A stretch of 63,261 bases of DNA, counting the filler, from Sluysia triapertura (taxonomy: Eukaryota): assembly GCA_046118255.1 (NCBI GenBank). It is 5 parts of 5 records of this genome, joined end to end, with 100 filler letters (N's around TTAATTAATTAA, not from the genome) between each part and the next. Parts side by side here need not be neighbours in the genome. Positions count along the whole stretch, not along the records: positions 11,421 to 26,551 come from JBJNIA010238216.1; 4 more parts are not named here. One strand, 5' to 3'. Numbering within the stretch: the stretch's first letter is position 1; every line of letters begins with the position of its first letter. Below, piece by piece: positions 9,950 to 58,523 of the stretch. The position numbers were made by a program, and so were the translations under genes. The notes below the pieces were generated by a model. It had not been told where the DNA came from. It saw only the letters and a program-made list of their open reading frames with translations, and did not search any database.

Positions 9950-10960
9950 TTAATCCGAACTTTAATAATCCGAAAACTTCGTAGTCCGAAAAACATTTAT
10001 TTATTTTCGAACGTTTCCGGGCAAATTTGATTCATTAATCCGAAACTTCATGATACGCAATCGGAAAGCACTGTTTTGAATTAAATTTCTAATAAATTTT
10101 CTGATTAATGTTGTTTAAATATTAAGCTTGTTTACAATTTAAATTTATTTAAATTAAATATCCATATGGCTAGAAAAAGAATATAAATTACAATTTATCA
10201 AAAGGCAAAAATTTGTGCAATAAAGGAGTCGAAGAAAATGTCTCCGAGTGAATTGTCTCACTCAATTATCAGAAGAGAATTAAATCTGGACCTAAGAATT
10301 TCTATGTTATCAGAAATTTTGAAAAATAAAGAGTAATGGGAAAATTGTGAAAGTTCCAGACTATCATTGAGAATTCATTGATCGAGTAGATATCTTGAAT
10401 GATGCGATAAATAGTTACGTGACTGATAAAATAATTATTACAAAAGCAAAGAAATTTGGACAGAAACTAAATGTTGATGACCGGCAATTCAGCAAAGGAT
10501 GGCTCTATAGATTCAAAAATCGATTTAATCTGATACTGAAAGTTCTCCACGGAGAAGCAAATTCAATGAATGATGTTGATATTTCAGCCCATAGAAAAAA
10601 ATGGTTGCAAACTTGGCCGGTATTGACCAAGAAGTTATACTCAATATGGATGAAAATAACCTTTCTTTCCAACAAAAACCATTTCATCAAGTGAAAGAAA
10701 AGGCATAAAACAATCTAAAGTTAGAATAACCATAGTTTTATGATCAATTAAAATTACACCCTTTGTTATTGGTGTTTTAAAGGATTTAATGATATTGTAA
10801 TTACCACAAAAATTCGAAAGCATGGATGACCACCGATTTGTTTAATTGTTTCATGCAGGCAGCATCTTGATGATGAAATGAGAAAATACGAAAAGAAATT
10901 TTATCTACTTCTTGATAACACTCCAAGTCATAGCTTGAAGAAATGTTTTCAGAACATTTT
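9950..10960 (+). mobile_element. Degenerate Tigger/pogo (CENP-B-like, Tc1/mariner superfamily) transposon
   Basis: ATG at 10166 gives MARKRI*ITIYQK (CENP-B N-terminal HTH-like). Then FSKGWLYRFKNRFNL..LHGEA (HTH_Tnp_Tc5-like), and across frameshifts NMDE, SKVRITIV, NSKAWMT and LLLDNTPSH (DDE_1 motifs). Repeated (T)AATCCGAA motifs at 9950-10045 resemble Tigger subterminal repeats. Multiple stops and frameshifts. Confidence 0.9.
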
Positions 10961-11320: not shown

Positions 11321-11420
11321 NNNNNNNNNNNNNNNNNNNNNNNNNNNNNNNNNNNNNNNNNNNNTTAATTAATTAANNNNNNNNNNNNNNNNNNNNNNNN
11401 NNNNNNNNNNNNNNNNNNNN
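11321..11420. other. Assembly gap with TTAATTAATTAA linker (44N+12+44N); the same structure occurs at 26552-26651, 38316-38415 and 52026-52125
   Basis: Four identical 100-nt structures. The linker has stop codons in all six frames, typical of a scaffolding spacer. Confidence 0.97.
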
Positions 11421-20200: not shown

Positions 20201-21316
20201 GTTTAATTTTTTAAGTAATAAACGGTTCGTTAAGCACTTATATCTCGAACAAATGAGATAAATAATTCGAATAAAATTTTTAAAGTTTAATTGAATTAAT
20301 GTTGGTGCATAATTGTTCATACACATTAAGAACATGCACAATAAAAGGACGAACTTCCACATAACACATAAACTTCAACACATTTATAATTTTTACAGTA
20401 GTATAATTTATTTTGCTGATATATTTATATGATTGAAGAATATTAATTTTTCAAAATTTTACAATTTGAACAAAAATAAAACTGCATACTTTATGTTAAT
20501 GTAATAATTTTCAAAAAAGTTTAAATTATATGAATTCAAAAATCAAAATATCCGAACTTCTTCAAAGATTTATTGTTTTAGTTTTGTGAAAGAAACCTAA
20601 AAATTTATTTCAATATGCATTTGAACATTTTAGAGATTTACACATGGAATGTAATTTAAGCGATTATAGAGCAGAATCTACTGATGATTCCGGTATAGTT
20701 TCGAATAATTCAGCAAAAGGTGTTAAAATAGAAAGCGATGATGAATTAAATGAAAATGACGTTAGAGCTAAACAATTAAAGAGGACGAAAATGAAATGTT
20801 AAATTATTGGAGTCCGTTATGGATGGTACGAGATTTTACGGATTAATTTTAGGTTAAGGTTATAGAAATTTTGATCGTATTTAATAGTGTTTAATAAATA
20901 AAAGTAGAAATAAAACTCCACCTTATTATATTTATAAAAAATGTAATCAAATAAAAACTTTAAAAGGTCCATTTTAATACTGAAAATTCCACAAGTTCTG
21001 TTAAGTTTATATTCATGAGTCAAAATGGCCACTGGTAATCGTAAAAATTCCAAAAATTCATTTCGATTTGAAGTAGGACCGAGTTGTTGAGACTCTGCTG
21101 GTTTAGTAGCCGCAGCAGCCGATTGACTAGCGTAATACCGTGAATCAAAAACTATTTCATTAAAATAAAAGTTAACAGAGAAAAAACAAAAACAACAATT
21201 AATTGAAAATTTATATGAACGACTAAATAAGCATTTAATAAAATTCAAGTTAGAAAGTCCGTACATTGGGATGACGTTATTTAGATTCAAGAAATAATAC
21301 GCTAAAACTTTATAAC

Positions 21317-21505
21317 CAACGTTTCGTGCAACATGTAAACTTTTAATCGCTTCATCTCTGTAATCATGCTCTGAATTTAAAACATAATACGTTATAACCT
21401 CATAATCAACGTTTCGTGCAACATGTAAACTTTTAATCACTTCATCTCTGTAATCATGCTCTGAATTTAAAACATAATACGTTATAACCTCATAATCAAC
21501 GTTTC
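21317..21505 (-). repeat. 90-bp tandem repeat (~2.1 copies, 30-aa unit) inside ORF 20817-21569
   Basis: caacgtttc recurs at 21317, 21407 and 21497. The two full copies are nearly identical, with unit NVDYEVITYYVLNSEHDYRDE(V/A)IKSLHVAR. Confidence 0.9.
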
Positions 21506-21818: not shown

Positions 21819-22660
21819 TTAATAATAATTTAATAATAAATTAATAACACATAAAATAATAATAAAATTTAATAATATAAACTGTTTCTTAGTAGCAAAA
21901 ATCGGTTCTTTAGTCATCACTGAAGAATAAATTGATGAAGCATCATCAGAATCTGATTTTTGCTTTATATTTTTGATATTTTGGAATCCAATTTCTTCTA
22001 ATGTGTTATTAAATAAAATATCTTGAGTTTTTATTCTAACTTCAATTTTGTTTAAATATTTTTCTGTAAATGCTCGATTTAATAAACATTCACGATTTAT
22101 GTGATATGAAAACGTCTTCGGTAACAAACTGATTGAAGTAGAAACATATTCCTTGTGTTGCAAAAAATTTGTATTAACACTTATTTGTTTCTTACAGCGA
22201 AAGCATTTATACTTTCGTCCGACTTCTAAAACATTATGATAAAACGGATGCTCAGATTCAATCACATTCTTAGTTGCTAAACCAATTTCTAAATTATTTA
22301 ATGAAAGTATTGATAATTACCATTATCCACATTAGAAATCCAGTTATTTTTATCCTCACAAATATTTTGCAAAGATTCTTTTTCAAATTCTAATATTTTT
22401 AATTTGTGTTCTGAAAAACAAAATACATCATAGAGTTTATTAATTTCTCGCTTATTATCTTGATCAGAATTAAAATGTGTTTTTTTAAATGTTCTGAAAG
22501 TTGACTCTATTATCGAAAAACTGTTGTCAATTTCTTCCTTTCTTTCTTTAAAAAAATTCATTAACTCATCTGTATTATTATTCAGTTTATTTATTTCATA
22601 CAACTCTTCTTCAATTCTTTTAGTGCAGTCTTCAGAATCCAAGCTAATACCAAAAGCCAT
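21819..22660 (-). CDS. Two-exon gene of unknown function: charged N-terminal region plus a PARP-type-like Zn finger (CxxC-x30-H-x4-C)
   Basis: ORF 22298-22660 joins ORF 21819-22265 in frame if the 32-nt GT..AG intron 22320-22289 is removed (..VDN-E-IGLATKNVIESEH..). The motif is GRKYKCFRCKKQI...SYHINREC. The 3' end is uncertain. Confidence 0.65.
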
Positions 22661-23409
22661 TAATAAATAACTAAAAACGAAATTAATACTACAATAAAAT
22701 TATGAAATAAAACTCTAAATATAACTAGAAAAATTCGATGGATGTAATATTAGAATATTAATTCGATATATGTAATATTTGAATAATAACTAAAAATTTA
22801 TATCATGAGATTTTAATTCCAAGAATTAAATTTAAATATTTAAATTTTTATTTTTTTATAACAAATTTTGAAATAGCCATAAATAATTTAAATGACGACG
22901 AAAAAAGTAACATTCTTCAAATAGTTTGCCTCTGCAAAAACTTTAATTTCTTTATAAATTAAAGTGCATAAAATATTTAAATCAAAAGAATGAAAGATAC
23001 AAAGAAAGAAAAATGTTTGTTCATGATAAAATAGCATTAGAATTAGTATGTTATGTTGAATTTTAATAGTATTTTCAATGTTGAAATGCTGCAACACGTA
23101 GGCCCAGATAATATAAAAATTAGTTATTATAATTAGTTTTTATTATCTAAAATTAATAACTAATAATTAGAATAATTAAAATATATATTAAATTAATGCT
23201 CATGAAGATAGCAACGTACGGCTGACACAAAATGTAAAATATAAAAGATTTCTATCAAAAATAAATTTAGTATTTGATTAGTTTTATCTTTATTTTAAGT
23301 TGATAAATTGTGTTAATAACAGAATGTTTATGTAGTTATGTTGAAAAGTGCTACGATTCTGGGTTATACCTAACCTACGATGCAAATAAGCCTAGATGAG
23401 TTCGACCTA

Positions 23410-24080
23410 ACAAGAACGACTTAAGTCTATAAGACGGCGGCCTATTAGGATTTATGATAAAAGAAACAGAAATAGATAAGGACGTAAGGCCTATAACAAG
23501 TATCTCTCCAAATTATGGCGACCTAATCGGATCTAATATGCACAAAGGTGTAAGTAATCCAAAGATCCAAAATAGAAACAATTTTATGATAATTAATTCT
23601 TTAAATTATTATTATTATTTGTTAATATTTTAGAGATTTTAAGTTAGCCTTTTACGGTCTAACTGATCAAAAATTGAATATTAAATTAGCCGTTTACGGT
23701 CTAATTTCTTGAAAACAAAAATTGGATTTTATTAAATTGAGCTATCCAGTTACGGTATAGCAGTCAAGACAATTATTTTAGTTATTATTATTACAACAAT
23801 AAAAATAAATTAGTAACTTCTATTACCAAATTTAATTACAGATAAAACTTTAATAATAATAATAATATGCAATTTAAATTTACTTAAATTCGATAAGAAT
23901 TTAGTTTATTATTTAGAAAACTAGAATTTAACTTATCCTTCTTAAGGTATAAGTTAAAAAGGTTTAAATTAAATTTGAGTATGATTTTACTCCTTCCTTC
24001 TTACGGTAAGGAGGTAAAAACTTATGTATAAAGAACTTACCAAATGCATGGAAATTTGTATTGGTCAGCGAATTCCAAAT
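23410..24080 (+). repeat. Dispersed repeat homologous to ~53260-53760, carrying a hairpin array (probably the 3' non-coding region of an LTR retrotransposon)
   Basis: Shared blocks in the same order at both loci: gacttaa(g/a)tctat, ccta(t/c)taggattt, ttttaagttagcctttta(c/a)ggtctaac, agtatgatttta. Confidence 0.7.
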
Positions 24081-24874
24081 TAAATTTTTCTGAAAAATTT
24101 CTTGTGTTTGTTCCAAAATTTACAATTACTTTTATACCTGTTTTCTGCTCTTATACGTGTTATTACACGTGTACTTATTTTTAATTCATTTAAACAAACT
24201 AATATTTTTCATTTAAATAAACTAATTTTTCCAAATATTTTTTCTTTATTTTTACTTTTAATTTATTTGAAATATTTTGTTTTATATTTTATTATTTTAT
24301 TTTTAAATATTTATTTAATTTGGAATATTTTATTTTATATTTTAATATTTTATTTTTTAAATATTTATTTTTTCTTTTACTTAAATACTTTATAATTCTG
24401 TAATATAATATTTATAATAATTTTATAGAATATTATCACATATAATCATAATTCAATCTTTTATACAATACAATAACAATGTAATCGCATATAATTCAAT
24501 TTTAGGATAACAGTTCAAGTTCAGGTTCTCATATCAGGCTCTGCTCTCACACCAACATTGGCTGATTTAACACTTTCCTTATCATCAAAGTCGATTAATA
24601 ATTTGCCATTCTTTGTATAGCACTCTTATATCCCATGAATAGTGGTTGTAATTCTTTAAGAATAAATTAAGAGGACTTACATAAGCATGAAGCATTTTTA
24701 TCTATACATTTTTTATATTTTATATTTGAACTTTTTATATTTTTATAAATTTTAATAAATTTTGATCTCGATACATGAAGTCCACTGAACTCAGCCTAGT
24801 TGTGTTGCTGGTACATGATCGTTAAAAAAATAGAACATATATATAAATTACTATTTTCATTCGTCGCTCTATTT

Positions 24875-25340: not shown

Positions 25341-26679
25341 AACCCATATTTAACAAAATAATTGTTAAAATAATAATGCTTAAAAAATTACTAAGATTCT
25401 AATGCTTTAGTATCAATTTAAAATTAGATTACGTATAGTTAATATAAATTCAAAATTTAATAACAAATAACAATTAAAATTAAATTTGTGCAAATAATCA
25501 TTTTAAAGTAAGATTCAATAAAGACAATGTTGGAATATTATATTAAAATACTGAAAGAATTATTATTAGCAAATATAAAATTAATAATAGAAATTTTCAA
25601 CAATATTTTATTTTCAAAAATAAATCTTTTCTATTGGTCGAATAAAGTCGATAGTCATTCATATTGTTATTATTAGTCAATAATAAAGTCAAAAACAACA
25701 ACACTTTAATATATTTTAAGTAATTTGCAAAATAACAATTGAAAAACGAAATTGTTAACAACTGATAAAAACAAATGAAAATCTATCACAATAATAAATA
25801 TCAATTTTAGTCTAATTATATTAAAGGAATAAACTCTAAAAATGTCAATTTAACATAATACAAACTCACTTAAAAAGGAATCACTCATTTAAATTAAAAT
25901 CAGTATGCGATCACCCTAAGATAACAAAATTGACTACAAAATATGAGAGAGTGAATCCCCAAAAATATACTTTAGTTTTAATTAAAAATAGAAAATGTTG
26001 GGACAAAATGTACCTTAATATTCATTTAAAATAAAATTATTTTGAGTAGATCAATAATAAACCTTAAGTCTCTATGATAAAATATTCCAATATCTACAAA
26101 ATCTAACTATTATGGCAAACTATTCAATATTTAAAAATTTATTTTAAATATATAAATAAAATATTCTAATTAAAATCAATATTTATTTATTTAAAAAAAA
26201 GTAAAGTAAATTGTTACCAAAAGCATGGATCTTCTTGTTTGTAATCAGCGGCGAATAGAGTCATATTTTACGTGTGAATAAAAATTCCTAAGTATTCTAA
26301 TTTATACCTTTTTTGTCATTCAATCATTTCTAGATTCGCAATCAGGAATTATTCTTATACAAATCATCAAAACCTCTTTTAAAGATTAAACCGACTACAA
26401 CAACTTTGACACTTACATGGTACGACCTGTCAAGAAAAACAAAACAATTCGATTAACAATCAACTCTCATTTTTTTCTACTCTACTCGATCTAGTTTTTC
26501 ATGAATCATTTCTTACATTAAAATAACAATTATTATTATTATTGACATACTNNNNNNNNNNNNNNNNNNNNNNNNNNNNNNNNNNNNNNNNNNNNTTAAT
26601 TAATTAANNNNNNNNNNNNNNNNNNNNNNNNNNNNNNNNNNNNNNNNNNNNTTAAAATATGTGTCAACATCATCAGGAA

Positions 26680-51100: not shown

Positions 51101-52125
51101 AAATACAATTTCCTGGTCTTCGACATAAAAAAATTCTAATGAACGACTCTACAGCGAATTATACAGGTAAATCATAAAACTTAAATTTACCAATAAACCA
51201 TCAAAAGAGCAAAACAAATTTTCACTAACTTTACAAGTCCATAGATTGTTGTATTGTATATACAATCTTTCTGCGTCAATCCAAGATAAATCATGTGTAA
51301 AAATTAGTAAAACGATTCCTATATGCAATGATGTCAAAATGTATAATATTGAATAAACAATCATTTACATTTCTAAATACGCTGATCTTTCCAGTAGTAC
51401 TTGTGTTAGAATGATCAACATGACGTTATAAAAACAATAATTAAAACTAATTGAGCTAATAATTATGCTATTAGTCTGTCACTAATTAATGATGTCGAAA
51501 TATATAATAAACAACTATGTAAATGTCTAAACACACTGATCTTTCCAGCCATACTTGTGTTAGATTGTAAAACACAATTATAATGCGGAAACCTGTGTTA
51601 AATTCGAAACTTTGTATGTATTTGTTTTGAAAAGACTTTTCGATGAAGGTATGGTTTGACCACTTCATGCAAGGATAGCCTTAATATTAAGCAAAGTCAA
51701 ATTTTAATTAATTCTTAATAATGAAATGTTGCATTTTTATACTTAGAATGAATTGAACATGATGAGGTAGCTATGAAAGAGGAGAATCTAGAAATGAGTT
51801 TGAAATGTTTGTAGAATGGTTTGTTTAAGAATAAGAACTTAAAACATGTTTCATTAAAAATTGGATGTGAAAAATCGAAAATCAAGTAAATTATAAAAAG
51901 TATAATTAAAGTCATTATTTTTATTTATGTTAACAATATTATTGATTGTTATTTTAATGTGAGAAGTAATTTAAGTAATAATAGATTGAGTAGAGTAAAA
52001 GAAAATGATGGTTGATAATAAATCANNNNNNNNNNNNNNNNNNNNNNNNNNNNNNNNNNNNNNNNNNNNTTAATTAATTAANNNNNNNNNNNNNNNNNNN
52101 NNNNNNNNNNNNNNNNNNNNNNNNN

Positions 52126-52637
52126 AATGCAGTTAAATGCGGAACACTGGAATGAACTTTTAGGTATTGACTTATGTTTCTGATTAAGAGTATATTTAAA
52201 CACTGGAAGATCGTGAATAAAAGACCTATTGAGAAGAGTGTAATTTGGTGAATGTGAAAAGGTCAGCTACAATACAACTCTTGGTATATTTGAAATATTA
52301 TGTGTAATGTTTTACGTCATTTGTTTGTTTGTTGTTTTTTAAAGGTATTATGTTGTGTTGTTGGTGTAAAGACAAATGTTGACTTTAAGGTGTTGAAATT
52401 AATTCGAAGATGTAAAGTAAATAATTTCAAAGGTGGATATTATTTGGTGTTATGGATGTCGAGTCACGTGTTTTCGATAAGTTTGTTGGTGTAAGTGATA
52501 GTATTAGTCGTAACTATGGCTTGTATATTATGAGATTGTGAATATGGTTTAGTTTAGGCAAATGAACTGTTTAGTAAGTGTGTTGGAGGTTTAATTAATT
52601 TTTTTAATTTTAAAGGTTATAAAGGTTGTCCACTACA
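52126..52637 (-). mobile_element. Probable LTR terminus (TGTAGTGG...) of a related element, cut by the gap
   Basis: A G/T-rich tract ends abruptly in CCACTACA, the same terminus as the 47809 LTR. Confidence 0.45.
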
Positions 52638-53760
52638 TAAAGAAACTATTTCAGACATCATTCGTACACAATCACATTGAGGCAGAATTTGGTACAGAAG
52701 CTTAAATGTCTACCTAGACCGAGTCAAACGCTAGGAATGAGATTGTGATTATTAAGGTTAATGATACTTAATCCAACCAAAAGGAATATGCAACGTTTTC
52801 AAAATAGGACTAATATCTTGTTGCGTAAATGACCTAAGAAATAGCGTCGAATCACGTAGATGTCCTTTGCCGATTACAAATCGTCTTCCTTGAGGTTATG
52901 AACGTCAAAGTAATCATTAGAAATTCGACGATAAGGGCGAATCTTTGTCTCATCATGATATTGCCTACTGTACGGGGTGCAAGCAATTTGAATAATTTGA
53001 GGTTTGTCATCTAGATCTACAGCATGATGACAAGCCATTAACATTAATCTTTCTTCATCAAATACAGTCCTATTTGGGTGTACTATGTTATAATATCAAA
53101 ATTATGAAAGTGTCGAAATTTCTTCCTATAATAGATGCTGCACCGTTTAACCGCAGAGTGGCACATCGGTCAAGAAGGGAAAGGTGTGGGGAAAGAATCC
53201 AAAAGAAAGAAAAGGCAACTGCAAGTGTTTTACTAAGAAAAGCTATCTTGCACCTTAGCAAAATAAGTACGACTTAAATCTATGAATGAGTCCTACTAGG
53301 ATTTCTTGAAGCGATTGTGTAATACTTTAAAGCTTAAAAAACGGTGACATAATTTTAGAAAAATTAGTGACGTGATATATTCTATGCTTCGATTAAACGA
53401 AATCATTTTAGTTGTATTTTAAGTTAGCCTTTTAAGGTCTAACAAATAATACAAGATTTTAAACTATTAAGCTTTAAAAAATCAAATTAAATTAACTCTG
53501 AGTTAATATTTATTAATAGAACAAAATATGCAATAAAGTACATATAATAACACAGTAGTTAAGATTTTAAACTCTTAAGATTTTTGTAAATCTCAGGTTA
53601 AAATTCAAATTTAGTTATAAATTAACCTAACCTGTAAGGCCTAGGATTATATTGAGGATTTTAAGTATGATTTTAAATGATCTTACTTTTTACAGTTAGG
53701 ATTTTAATACTTATTAAAAATATTCTTACTTTGACATGGACATAGATTTTCAGAAAGTTC
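52638..53760 (+). mobile_element. Decayed Ty3/gypsy integrase 3' part plus hairpin-containing 3' region
   Basis: Relic motifs in integrase order: T--LP*GYER (compare T-YHPQ-NG--ER), IAYCT (compare AY-T), IWVY, and KVSKFLP----PF (GPY/F). Confidence 0.5.
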
Positions 53761-54399
53761 CCATGTTTATATTACCGGTTGTTGATGTAGCTGTAGTGAT
53801 ATAATTCCAAAAATAGTCTTTTTGTACTAGATATAATCCCGCCATATTTGTTTGTTTATTTATTTATTTACTCCATTTTATGCAATAAAACAAAAATTGA
53901 TCAAAATTTATTATTAAAAAGTATTTTTTTATAAAAATAAGTAAATTGTTTTTTGATAATATAAATAGTATTTGAATAAAATAATTAATAATAATAATAT
54001 AAAATAATAAAAAATAAAATAAACGATAATTTTCATAATTAATATTTACATTTATAAATTATAAGTTATAGAATGTGTTAAATTGTAAATTATGTTCGAG
54101 ATTCAACAATCCACAACCCAACACAACGGAAATGAAATCTATGAGTACAGGGGCGAGTGACAGCGAGGTATTTCTTTAAAGATCGCAAGCAAATAGAACA
54201 GACGGAAAACCTCACTGCATTCTGAACATAAAAAAATTATAAGATAATAAATAATTTTAATTAATATTAATGAAATTTATCCTAATTATTATATTACTAA
54301 GTTACAATGAAAAAAACTATATATAATATTTAAAACAATGTAAGTTGTTATGTACATTTTCCAAAGAGAATTAAACTAGTTGGCGTTACGATATGTTAT

Positions 54400-55620
54400 T
54401 TACTGCATAACCAACTTGTTTTTTATTTTGTTTATCCTGTAATGAACAAACGTCTATGCATACCATGACGTTTTTACAGCCTGGTGTGACAACATTCATA
54501 TATCGCTGGAATGTTTCTGGTACACCTGTTTAACCAAACAGTTCATCTCCTCATGTGAATACTGTCTTATGTTTATCTTTCTCTGCAATCTCTATTTGCC
54601 AGTAACCACACTGTAAAATGTTGATCACACTGTAGATGTTTATCTAGTTAATCAAATATTTCGTCTATTCTTAAGAAAAACGTTTTTTATGGTTATCTTG
54701 TTTAGTTCCCTAAAATATGTGCAAAATCTCATTGTGCCATCTTTTTTCTTAACTAATAATACAGGTGATGAAAACGGGAAAATTTATTAATCCGGCCTTT
54801 TTCATTATGCCAATTTGTTTCTATATTGGGATTCTATATGGTTTTCTTCTGTTATTATAACCGAGTCTCCAATATCATTATTTTTCGAATAATATCATAT
54901 AATCGTTCTTATTTGTAATTCTTATTTGTAATTTCAATATCCACATAATTTTTATCATTTATTTCTCAGTGCAATTTTATAGTATTCCCTTTTGGTTTCT
55001 ACATTATAGTTAACGATTCTGCCAAACTTTGTGCCAGTATATAATCATTTATCATCGTTGATATAATTTGTCATTCGGACCAGCACTCTCCCTTCATACA
55101 TGTTTCAGATTGAGTCCACTATGCCAATATCAATTTTCTCTTGGTTGATTTCTGATGCTATGAACATTATTCTTCAGGTTCGTAAACTGTTAGTTTTTGC
55201 GGCATGATACATTCGCTTCTGCTTAACAACCATAATAGTTCTTCTAAAAATACATCATAATTATTTATAGTTCTCCGACTAACTGTCCATTAATTTTGCC
55301 TTTAGTTGTAACAATTTATCCATCGCCATTATCATATCTTTTGGGCAATTTCTCATTACCCTCGAATTTATTTCGTCCTAATTCACAACATGCTATCGTT
55401 ATACCGACTATGTGTATTGCATCTCCAGTAACACCTGCTAGATCTGACAAATTATCAGCAAGTCCCCTCAGTACTTCATTAATGAGAAGATTTTCGTTTA
55501 TCAATGATGCTACTACACCAGTATCTATTAGTACTATAATTTTTTTATGTCGACCATTGACCTTTTTGCTCCATTATAGTTATTATTAGCGCATATTGTA
55601 TGCACTACATTTTGGTATAG
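54400..55620 (-). mobile_element. Decayed Ty3/gypsy pol (protease and RT)
   Basis: VLIDTG at ~55520, [19 protein letters not shown], and LQCGYWQIEIAEKDKHKTVF. Many stops and indels. Confidence 0.85.
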
Positions 55621-57228
55621 GTGTTCTTTCTGACTTCCTTTGATTTCTTCAATTTCTTTATTCTTATTATTCTGTATTCTTTGTAACGCTATGTTTCCTT
55701 TTTATTTCTTTTTTTAAAGCGTTTATCCGCGAATTTGCATGATTGTGTAATAAATACGTAACTAAAAAGTGGAAACAACCTATTAATAGTTTCCATATAA
55801 ATCCAAAAATTTTGTAAATTTCTACTACCGAAAATAGTTGTGATACCATTAGTGCTGTTACTTTGATTATTATATAAATAACTATTAATCCGAAAAATGC
55901 TTGATCTAATATTAGAAAACTACCCAAAATATGTATTGTGGGCTGCCCTTTTGAAGTGATCTGGACCTAGTAGTCGTTCGAAATTTATTTGTCCTCGTTC
56001 TCTATTGTGATTTTATCAACTATATCTGTTAATACTTTATCCTTTTTATGGGGTTTAGAATTTCTTACCAAGCGGCTTGTATGTCATATCTCGCATATGT
56101 ACCTGAATTTGGAATGTTTTTTGATACAAAGAATTTCAACCTTCCCTTTAACTCTGTTAATCTTATTATTTCAGATGATTTAACCTGTCTTCGGTGTGGA
56201 AGTATAATATCCATAATTTGTCATCAATTTATGTTTTCTGGTGCCATTACATTTGAACAATGCATGGGCTTTGGTTTTATCTTATTATTTATATACAGTA
56301 CTCTGGTTACAGGTTCTAAATATGTTTGTATCTCACCAGATAATAGTTCATTTGCGTGGGGAGGGCTGTTTAGGTTTTAGATTCAACAAATTACAGTTAA
56401 TTTTATTTATTTTTAAATTAAAAATTTCTTTAATATGAAAAAATTAAACATTAAAACAGTTAAAACAATGAATAACTTATTAATTAATAACCTAGGCTTA
56501 AAGCCTGTAAAAAATAACAATTTTAACAAAGTTTAATATTTTTATTAAAAAACAATAAAACATTGTAAAAAAAATATAAATATACTCACAACACTATAAT
56601 GAAGTTTAACTGATGTTTCTTTTCTATAAGCACTGTAGAGAATTCTTCAAACAAAATCCATCATACTACATCACACAAAAGCACTTCACATACACACAGA
56701 CTATTAAACAAACTATTAAACTAATTCAAAAACAAACATGACCATCACATCTAATTATCATGAACTATCACTATTATTATTACAATTCAGATCTTATTAA
56801 AATGTATAAAGTAATTATAGTCATTATTGTCCTATAATATGATCATATAGTAATAACTTTTATAATAATTTTCATAATAATATTTCATAATAAAATTCAC
56901 CATAAATATTTCTGTATTAATAAACATAATATCCACATAATTGTTATCATTATTATTATTTCCTATTCCTATTATTTTTTTTTATTTTATTATCAATCTT
57001 TCTTTCTCTTTTTTTATATTACGCAATTATCTGACTGTGATACCGGAAAATTTGTACTTTTCTATAAGCAAGATCCATCGATGCATATTTCATCAGTTTA
57101 GAACAAAGTCAGTCTGTACCATCTGGAGAAAGTAATATTCGAAATAAAATACACCATATTGTGAGTACTGCAGAAAGAAATGATAACAATGCCAAACCAT
57201 TTCAGAAGCTACAATTTTTATTTCGTGG

Positions 57229-57875
57229 ATGTCAGAAGATTTAGAAAAGCAAATGAAACAAATGGAAGATCTTGGAAAAGGAAAACGTAAAAGAACTACT
57301 GTTACACCATTCGTACCAAACCAAACTCTTAGGAAAATTGACACTGGTAACAAATCCGATACATCTAGTGATGATGATAGCGAATATTTAGCTGAGTCAT
57401 CAGAATATTAAGAAGATTACAGTATAAGTGGAGACCAACCTGACTCACCTAATATCAATGGTCAAGTAACATAATCAACAATAGAATCAGTAGATGCTGG
57501 AACGGCAACTAGTACCAACCAAAATGTTAATTCGATAAATCGAGTTTATCAGAATCAAAAGGAAAATAGTGATTTATCACAATGGGCCTTATACGGTATG
57601 GATGAAAATTTAATTACTAGTGATGGAGTAAATATGCGTTTGCACAAAAATATTGTACGACGTCGTGAGTTCTCCGTTGTAGATGGTTTTTATCCACGAG
57701 AACGTATGGAAGTTTATAAAGCACGTATGCATTTTGGATTACCTTCAAAAACAGTTAAACGAAGTGATCGTTGGTGGCCTGATGAATTGCAACACAAAAA
57801 GAACGAAGAAATGTGGACCTATCTTAACCGTTTAACCAATAATATTATTTGTTTAAATCAGTCTGTTAATGGAAA
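57229..57875 (+). pseudogene. CHD4: CHD3/4/5 (Mi-2)-like exon, DUF1087/DUF1086 region, with two in-frame TAA codons (57409, 57472)
   Basis: EDL......LGKGKRKR..V, an acidic SDDDSEY tract, and VDGFYPRER..YKARMHFGLP...W...LQHKKNEEM..Y (compare [22 protein letters not shown]...WL..L.GKSE.EF.AY). Donor AA|GTAAGT. The gene symbol is family-level only. Confidence 0.8.
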
Positions 57876-58523
57876 GTAAGTATTGCTTTACTAAACAAAT
57901 TATAATTTCTACATTTAATATTATCAACACGGAAATTTTAAATTTAAAATTTGTTGATATATTCAGTATTATATGTACGTGGTGTATAGAAATAATTACC
58001 TTATTTTTGATTTAAATAACTTTTAAGTGACAATTTTTTCGAAGCACTCGTTGCTTTAAAATTTCATTCAATAACTTGCCGATTAAACAAAAAATTTGCA
58101 AATGTCATTTGAGCATTTGATTTATTTGTAGAGAAATCCATAATACATAGATTATCATCTATGCACATATTACTATAAACAGAATATTTCTAAAATAACA
58201 ATACCGTAACTTATCAAATTGCAAATATGAATCACAAATAAGTTCTTAAACAGAAAAATATTAAATGATGAGATTGTCAAACATTAATACATGAGAAAAT
58301 AGTCCGTTCACACAACTAGAAACAAATTCTATTGTAATTTACCTTACATAATTATTTTTCTGACAATTATTTTTCCTATGAATTACCAAAACAGTGCTAA
58401 AAAATACAATAATATTAAAATTAATATATTTGAATGTTGATATACTTCAGGAAAACAAATTTCATATAAAAAATCACACCTTGATATTGTATAAAATTAA
58501 ATTAAATTTTAAAATAATTTCAG

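Follow-up and report, generated by a model that had tools for sequence, protein, structure and literature searches.

Two diverged arrays of a bulged-hairpin motif, a candidate cis-acting RNA signal of a dispersed mobile element

The window analysed here, that is, the whole stretch of 63261 nt (~24% GC), contains four blocks made up of N44, 12 nt and N44 (11321-11420, 26552-26651, 38316-38415 and 52026-52125), one of which, as read, holds TTAATTAATTAA. We took these blocks to be joins between contigs, probably five in all, which places the two hairpin arrays described below, array A and its counterpart at locus B, on different contigs. Array A consists of five hairpins of the same shape on the plus strand, spread over ~370 nt (Table 1). 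To one side of it, on the minus strand, there is a host-like gene (21819-22699) with an ATG at 22660 and a 32-nt GT-AG intron (22320-22289). By eye, its product has a coiled-coil-like part followed by a Cys/His-bearing part; the gene has no Pfam match, none of 669 candidates was a homologue, and the best atlas value, 0.81, is at chance level. Array A may lie in an upstream intron of this gene. The window also holds a gypsy element on the minus strand (43635-47809), which has 107-bp LTRs that are 93% identical, a visible PBS and PPT, a DUF7041 gag and a protease that passes into the C-terminus of the integrase without an RT, RNase H or integrase core. A second decayed gypsy pol, also on the minus strand (~54130-55600, with an RT match at 54422-54777), runs in the direction opposite to the plus-strand reading of locus B. 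We take these two gypsy elements and the 32-nt intron as signs of an AT-rich eukaryote, probably an invertebrate.

The first-pass annotation of this DNA reported five hairpins in array A, and all five are found on the plus strand at the places that it gave. The lower stems of A1 and A5 are 6 bp, one pair longer than had been written there. In A2 and A4 the predicted top helix reaches into the nominal loop, resulting in a helix of 3-4 bp and a loop of 3-4 nt. Loop-loop complementarity among the hairpins of the array is small, at most 4 bp, and kissing between them was rejected for this reason. Positions 23636-23673 and 23678-23715, which hold A1, A2 and their flanks, form a direct repeat of 38 nt whose copies are 79% identical and 42 nt apart, and duplication has therefore contributed to array A. 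The sequence CAAAAATT comes after both A1 and A2 (at 23668 and 23716). On the minus strand it reads AATTTTTG, which we take to be Sm-site-like; it has 22 matches in the window, and its two occurrences here probably reflect one duplication. A2 arose by duplication, after which its stem changed from G-C to A-T on both sides. The earlier statement that simple tandem duplication would not give this pattern was too strong, A1 and A2 being a tandem duplicate, and the description of the spacers as unrelated AT-rich DNA does not hold for the flanks of these two hairpins.

Table 1. Positions in the window of the hairpins and of the features associated with them
Feature	Position	Strand	Remarks
Decayed coding-like sequence, locus A	23200..23580	+	GC 0.30-0.37 in 100-nt bins 23300-23600; A>T skew +0.15; no database match
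Shared 45-bp block	23409..23453 (upstream of array A) and 53262..53304 (locus B)	+	0/200 shuffles
Hairpin A1	23642..23664	+	6-bp stem, CC/GG, loop TTTTAC, bulged T; 27/28 nt identical to B1 with flank
Hairpin A2	23683..23707	+	A1 tandem duplicate; one stem pair changed on both sides
Hairpin A3	23741..23761	+	Stem predicted to extend over 23737-23767
Hairpin A4	23927..23958	+	10-bp stem; extension 23918-23965 predicted, with U.G pair
Hairpin A5	23990..24013	+	Extension 23976-24024 predicted, with G.U pair; 12-mer 23978-23989 common to locus B
GTAAG, splice-donor-like	24036..24040	-	23 nt beyond A5
Decayed coding-like sequence, locus B	52620..53410	+	A>T skew +0.08; weak RNase H-motif-like match near 52987
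Hairpin B1	53423..53443	+	Strict motif, A1 equivalent; extension 53412-53454 predicted
Hairpin B2	53456..53480	+	Degenerate, one top pair lost; 14.5 bits, E ~1
B2 duplicate (B3)	~53564-53588	+	More decayed; B2 and B3 are duplicates
Hairpin B4	53624..53647	+	A4 equivalent; bulged C, single A.C mismatch, one pair changed on both sides; weak alone, 10.8 bits
Hairpin B5	53679..53703	+	A5 equivalent; top helix CT/AG; two double-sided changes and one one-sided change
GTAAG	53725..53729	-	22 nt beyond B5

When both strands of the window were scanned with a strict pattern (a Watson-Crick stem of at least 5, CC, a loop of 5-8, GG and T), six matches were found, namely A1-A5 and B1. In 200 dinucleotide shuffles, made in 1-kb blocks, the mean was 0.135 and the maximum 2, so that the motif density observed is not matched in dinucleotide-shuffled sequence (six reached in 0/200). 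Because the pattern was picked after the sequence had been seen, all analogous classes of top pair and bulge were also scored. Of the 35 such classes of top dinucleotide and bulge that occur in the window, CC/T is the only one with a cluster of five inside 500 nt; the runners-up are AT-only classes with three each. A relaxed motif, written so as to admit B2 and its decayed duplicate, has 19 matches in the window, nine of them within the two arrays, which make up ~720 of 126522 strand-bases. Isolated matches elsewhere in the window, such as those at 34640, 58165 and 794-771, were treated as background; the one at 794-771, on the minus strand, is a lone relaxed-motif match that has no fold in motif form.

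Locus B (53411-53720) is a diverged, colinear homologue of array A. The similarity of B1 and its flank to A1 was reached by 0/200 shuffles. The alignment of the A4-A5 segment with the B4-B5 segment was matched or beaten by two of 5000 random window segments, and the two segments have an exact 12-mer in common. The long spacer between hairpins cannot be aligned between A and B (112/200 shuffles). Beyond the last hairpin the two loci are at best marginally alignable (228/2000 shuffles; 43/5000 for 65 nt), and homology extending more than ~65 nt past the array was rejected on the first of these figures. Homologous arrays, as in a dispersed repeat, are found on two different contigs. Given the second homologous locus, the sequence supports the suggestion that the array belongs to a dispersed mobile element; segmental duplication is a possible source of the two loci.

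In the eight hairpins the first five positions of the lower stem make up 40 cells, of which 39 are paired (38 Watson-Crick and one G.U), with two to four pair types at each position, and the observed pairing was reached in 0/100000 column permutations. The five hairpins with 6-nt loops are 95% paired, against 14-45% in slid controls, and at five of eight pairs both sides have changed (0/500 shuffles). Since pairing was the ground on which most hairpins had been picked, such counts are biased upward. Less circular evidence comes from B4 and B5, which stand at equivalent positions, and from A4 and A5, which were left out and then ranked by a model. Over seven pairs A1 and B1 are identical, A4 and B4 differ by one double-sided change and one broken pair, and A5 and B5 differ by two double-sided changes, of which one turns a C-G of the top helix into U-A, and by a single change from C-G to U.G. 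A covariance model built from five hairpins ranked the left-out A4 and A5 sixth and seventh of 44 matches in a scan of the window, at 22.0 and 17.5 bits respectively, with an isolated background match at 17.3. The bulged pyrimidine and the TA(C/A) end of the loop are kept in 8/8 hairpins. Given the hairpins themselves, the homology of locus B and the pairing of the lower stems, the structure has therefore been maintained and is not due to chance: the array is structurally constrained, in two diverged copies. Selection on structure, as proposed in the first-pass annotation, is supported by the covariation between positionally equivalent hairpins of these copies.

Both arrays are preceded by GC-richer, stop-riddled sequence which by eye is like Ty3/gypsy pol. 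In 5/5 other element-like ORF regions measured, A exceeds T on the sense strand. At locus B the RNase H-like match to a profile of Pol proteins is the best of its region and lies on the plus strand; its score was reached in 5/300 shuffles, the blocks having been chosen post hoc. In a window-wide block scan this match ranks sixth outside the known gypsy regions, and it accounts for two of the five blastx rows listed, with E of 4-10 throughout. The same scan gave no support for locus A, with ranks of 22-117 as best per block. The profile was built from 97 of 120 fetched Pol proteins, largely of one clade, so other clades could be missed, and it gave no match above 4 bits at locus A or B. We take the main clade to be CsRn1-like; one match is from Clonorchis. 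In a frameshift-tolerant profile alignment the score was reached by 2/60 shuffles for locus B on the plus strand, 3/60 for locus A on the plus strand and 0/60 for locus B on the minus strand, and the RNase H motif was placed elsewhere than at its by-eye position. None of these frameshift-tolerant results was significant, and locus B did as well on the minus strand as on the plus strand. Pfam searches (21 and 28 queries, with X at stops) found no retroelement family for locus A or B. The upstream frames, again with X at stops, had no matches among PDB sequences; phmmer, with one frame against 1.84 billion representatives, also gave none. A homologue search for the upstream sequence retained 0/157 candidates at E<=10, and tblastx against 70 gypsy-bearing loci gave no row at E<=1. 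Various readings of this sequence by eye (RT motifs, a Mag-clade pol, a minus-strand gag and SPRY-domain exons) were dropped, no search having supported any of them. No direct repeat that could be an LTR pair flanks either array, no purine run of at least 9 nt with at least 3 G follows either of them (the window's own gypsy has one), and neither is followed by poly(A) or a short tandem tail. A tRNA search of the window found none. It is possible that the LTRs were lost from these decayed copies, and locus B lies ~0.5 kb from a contig end. Of the earlier proposal that the array belongs to a retroelement RNA, the dispersed mobile element is borne out by the second homologous locus, and the retroelement class is only suggested, by the 5/300 shuffles of one post hoc test.

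Rfam 15, searched with the whole window, gave nothing at or above the gathering threshold, the best matches having E values of 0.16 and 0.35, far below gathering, and this agrees with the earlier description of the motif as undescribed. The hammerhead and other Rfam families or ribozymes were rejected for the hairpins on this result, SECIS was rejected by eye, there being no GA quartet partner, and tRNA was rejected on the tRNA search above. An exact 25-mer of the motif has no match in GTDB genomes; phages gave three short AT-rich matches at E>=0.1 and plasmids two matches at E 0.08. Run over the 70 gypsy-bearing loci (445889 nt), the covariance model gave one match, at E 4.4. These loci (L001-L070) are in GTDB representative genomes and encode animal-type gypsy Pol, and they are most simply explained as eukaryotic DNA in those assemblies. 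In titles and abstract openings of largely open-access papers, we found no published description of such a hairpin array. The motif appears to be new and is assigned here to no family; most likely it works in the manner of a kind already known, the structured cis signals of retroelements.

The evidence on the functional strand points both ways. Four G.U appositions on the plus strand (two in B5 and one each in the extensions of A4 and A5) would become A.C mismatches on the minus strand, where B5 folds poorly; the A>T skew upstream of both arrays favours the plus sense. We consider it unlikely that the minus strand is the functional one, in which case the hairpins would lie just 3' of GUAAG, with an A bulged on the 5' side and purine-rich loops of the form (G/U)UAA, and would act either as an intronic splice-donor modulator or in the 5' leader of a reverse element (packaging/dimerisation). 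Several observations nevertheless point in this direction. A GTAAG lies at nearly the same distance from the last hairpin at both loci (Table 1), against a background of 0.0006 per base. Where B4 and B2 have A.C appositions on the plus strand, the minus strand has G.U. On the minus strand, too, the bases at the two ends of the loop are, over the eight hairpins, G.A (three), U-A (three), G-C and G.U, compared with U.C (three) and A.C among those on the plus strand. The folding of array A as a whole is more unusual on the minus strand (z -4.3 vs -2.5 on the plus strand); in summed folding energy the two strands are level (-82.6 and -81.9). Read by hand, an AG at 22671 precedes the minus-strand ORF start at 22660, which would allow array A to be part of an intron of 1.37 kb (24040-22671). 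In addition, 24036-24142 and 26213-26316 are related 100-nt units (5/5000 random segments), each of which, on the minus strand, starts with AGGTATAAA and ends just before GTAA; these may be a promoter and first exon, a paralogous exon or a terminal repeat. However, the 26213 unit has no adjoining array, the sequence past the last hairpin is barely alignable between the loci, and stops are found in all reading frames just before the locus B pentamer. A more specific form of the minus-strand reading seems to us distinctly improbable. In it the hairpins, placed 22-23 nt downstream of a real GUAAG donor, would present GUAA(G) loops that resemble 5' splice sites, and the array, distributed by a mobile element, would engage U1 as a decoy or enhancer and so control the splicing or cleavage of the intron that contains it; nothing similar to a hairpin array displaying splice sites was found in Rfam or in the literature searched. 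The data weakly favour the plus sense and a gypsy pol.

Other explanations apply to the plus strand or to the DNA itself. In one of them, which we hold to be quite unlikely, the array would serve a non-LTR element (LINE or Penelope-like) as a 3' untranslated signal bound by the element's own reverse transcriptase. LINE 3' ends carry poly(A) or a short tandem tail, neither of which comes after either array, and there is no ribozyme match. The sole protein hint is also gypsy-like, the comparison having been with a gypsy Pol profile and no LINE profile. Such a signal would be consistent with the failure to find an LTR and PPT at the arrays and with an alignable region that ends with the array, and the 3' tail of the eel LINE UnaL2 is described as needing a bulged hairpin near the 3' end of the element (PMC1636434). 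The UnaL2 hairpin is a single stem in which a C is bulged and a U-U mismatch is present, whereas here there are five repeats and no tail. It is very unlikely that the hairpins are single-stranded DNA signals for an HUH-type transposase (Helitron-like or IS200/IS605-like). Bulged-T subterminal hairpins are known for HUH-type enzymes, the loops here end in TTAC, and the hairpins fold as DNA too, more weakly and with B4 and B5 not in motif form. Yet there are five spread copies and not one subterminal hairpin, G.T/G.U pairs are kept in B5, and no HUH ORF was present among the ORFs scanned. A Helitron 3' end is a single hairpin, then CTRR, then T, and CTRR-T is absent at either side of the arrays. 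We regard as highly improbable a neutral origin of the hairpins, as a by-product of short duplications and of the template-switch perfection of quasi-palindromes in AT-rich DNA. Template switching can alter both arms at once, and A1/A2 and B2/B3 are indeed duplicates. Repair would, however, tend to erase the bulge, and yet the pyrimidine bulge and the loop end persist in all eight hairpins, although the long spacer has diverged beyond alignment; the concentration of relaxed-motif matches in the two arrays also argues against this explanation.

The reading that we prefer, tentatively and at a little short of an even chance, is that the array may serve a decayed retroelement family as a multivalent RNA signal for protein binding, situated downstream of pol and by analogy placed like the retroviral export elements. 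The signal would act in cis, and the dispersed family to which it belongs would most likely be a decayed one of Ty3/gypsy type, transcribed on the plus strand; the array would adjoin the putative pol remains, directly downstream. The lower stem that is free in sequence and still paired, the fixed bulge and apex and the ~5 loosely spaced copies together suggest repeated binding sites for one protein. Each hairpin would then be one site, the same protein binding to all of them. What such a protein would probably read is a shape, with a pyrimidine bulge two pairs under the loop, together with fixed bases (the C-G pairs, the loop ending UA(C/A) and GGU); the lower stem would need only to pair. With about five sites, several copies of the protein could load on one RNA. 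The binding partner would most likely be a host export or transport adaptor, with the Gag of the element itself as the second choice; we infer both the protein binding and the role in export. To our knowledge, how RNA is marked for export or packaging in invertebrate LTR elements is mostly unknown outside a few models. The 25-nt hairpin is a compact unit that can be tested directly, and a covariance model can trace the family even where its protein is no longer recognisable. With two copies, both decayed, the value of the array is limited for now.

Given a plus sense and a position after coding remains, the nearest functional analogues would be the retroviral transport elements. The MPMV CTE sits immediately upstream of the PPT (PMC11379458), and the MTE of MusD and the PTE of MLV are multi-stem export elements (PMC5767303). 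As described there, all three are structured cis elements of 160-1400 nt with several stem-loops, to be compared with an array of 370 nt after coding-like sequence, and they have long or complex folds, with a kissing loop as well as a pseudoknot in the MTE. The array here, unlike these elements, consists of five near-independent mini-hairpins with a shared apex, and no PPT or LTR is seen. The first-pass annotation likened the array to repeated coat-protein operators. The MS2-type operator of leviviruses has an ANYA tetraloop and, on the 5' side two pairs below it, a bulged A. The likeness stands for the 5' bulged A, on the minus strand only, where an A is bulged two pairs below the loop in seven of the eight hairpins, and the lower stem is free in sequence as in the operator. 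It does not stand for the loop, which here is of 5-7 nt and on the minus strand of (G/U)UAA type, not an ANYA tetraloop; the present case also differs in being a natural multicopy array in a eukaryote. The Roquin ADE, which has U-rich hexaloops and of which several stem-loops can cooperate in one UTR (PMC11609897, PMC6145892), is similar in these loops and in the number of stem-loops. Its motif is a hexaloop GUUYUA or one of six listed variants on a stem of 6-8 bp, and 0/8 loops here match it (PMC11609897). The stem here, moreover, is broken by the bulge after 2 bp.

The window contains several further coding and repeated sequences. At 57187-57879 on the plus strand there are two ORFs of 74 and 134 aa, the 134-aa ORF being without a Pfam match; in the comparison with the Pol profile, though, the 800-nt block at 57201 came fourth of 314, with a score of 56.7. 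An Asn/Ser-rich open frame of 433 aa at 29684-30985 on the minus strand has no credible Pfam match. ORF fragments at 10371-10694 (plus strand) and 35971-36581 (minus strand) we take, by eye, to be pogo/Tigger- and piggyBac-transposase-like. Further repeats comprise one 90-nt tandem unit and two small dispersed families (21285-21505; 27078-27270 and 29229-29423; 26451-26549, 32363-32616 and 51689-52024).
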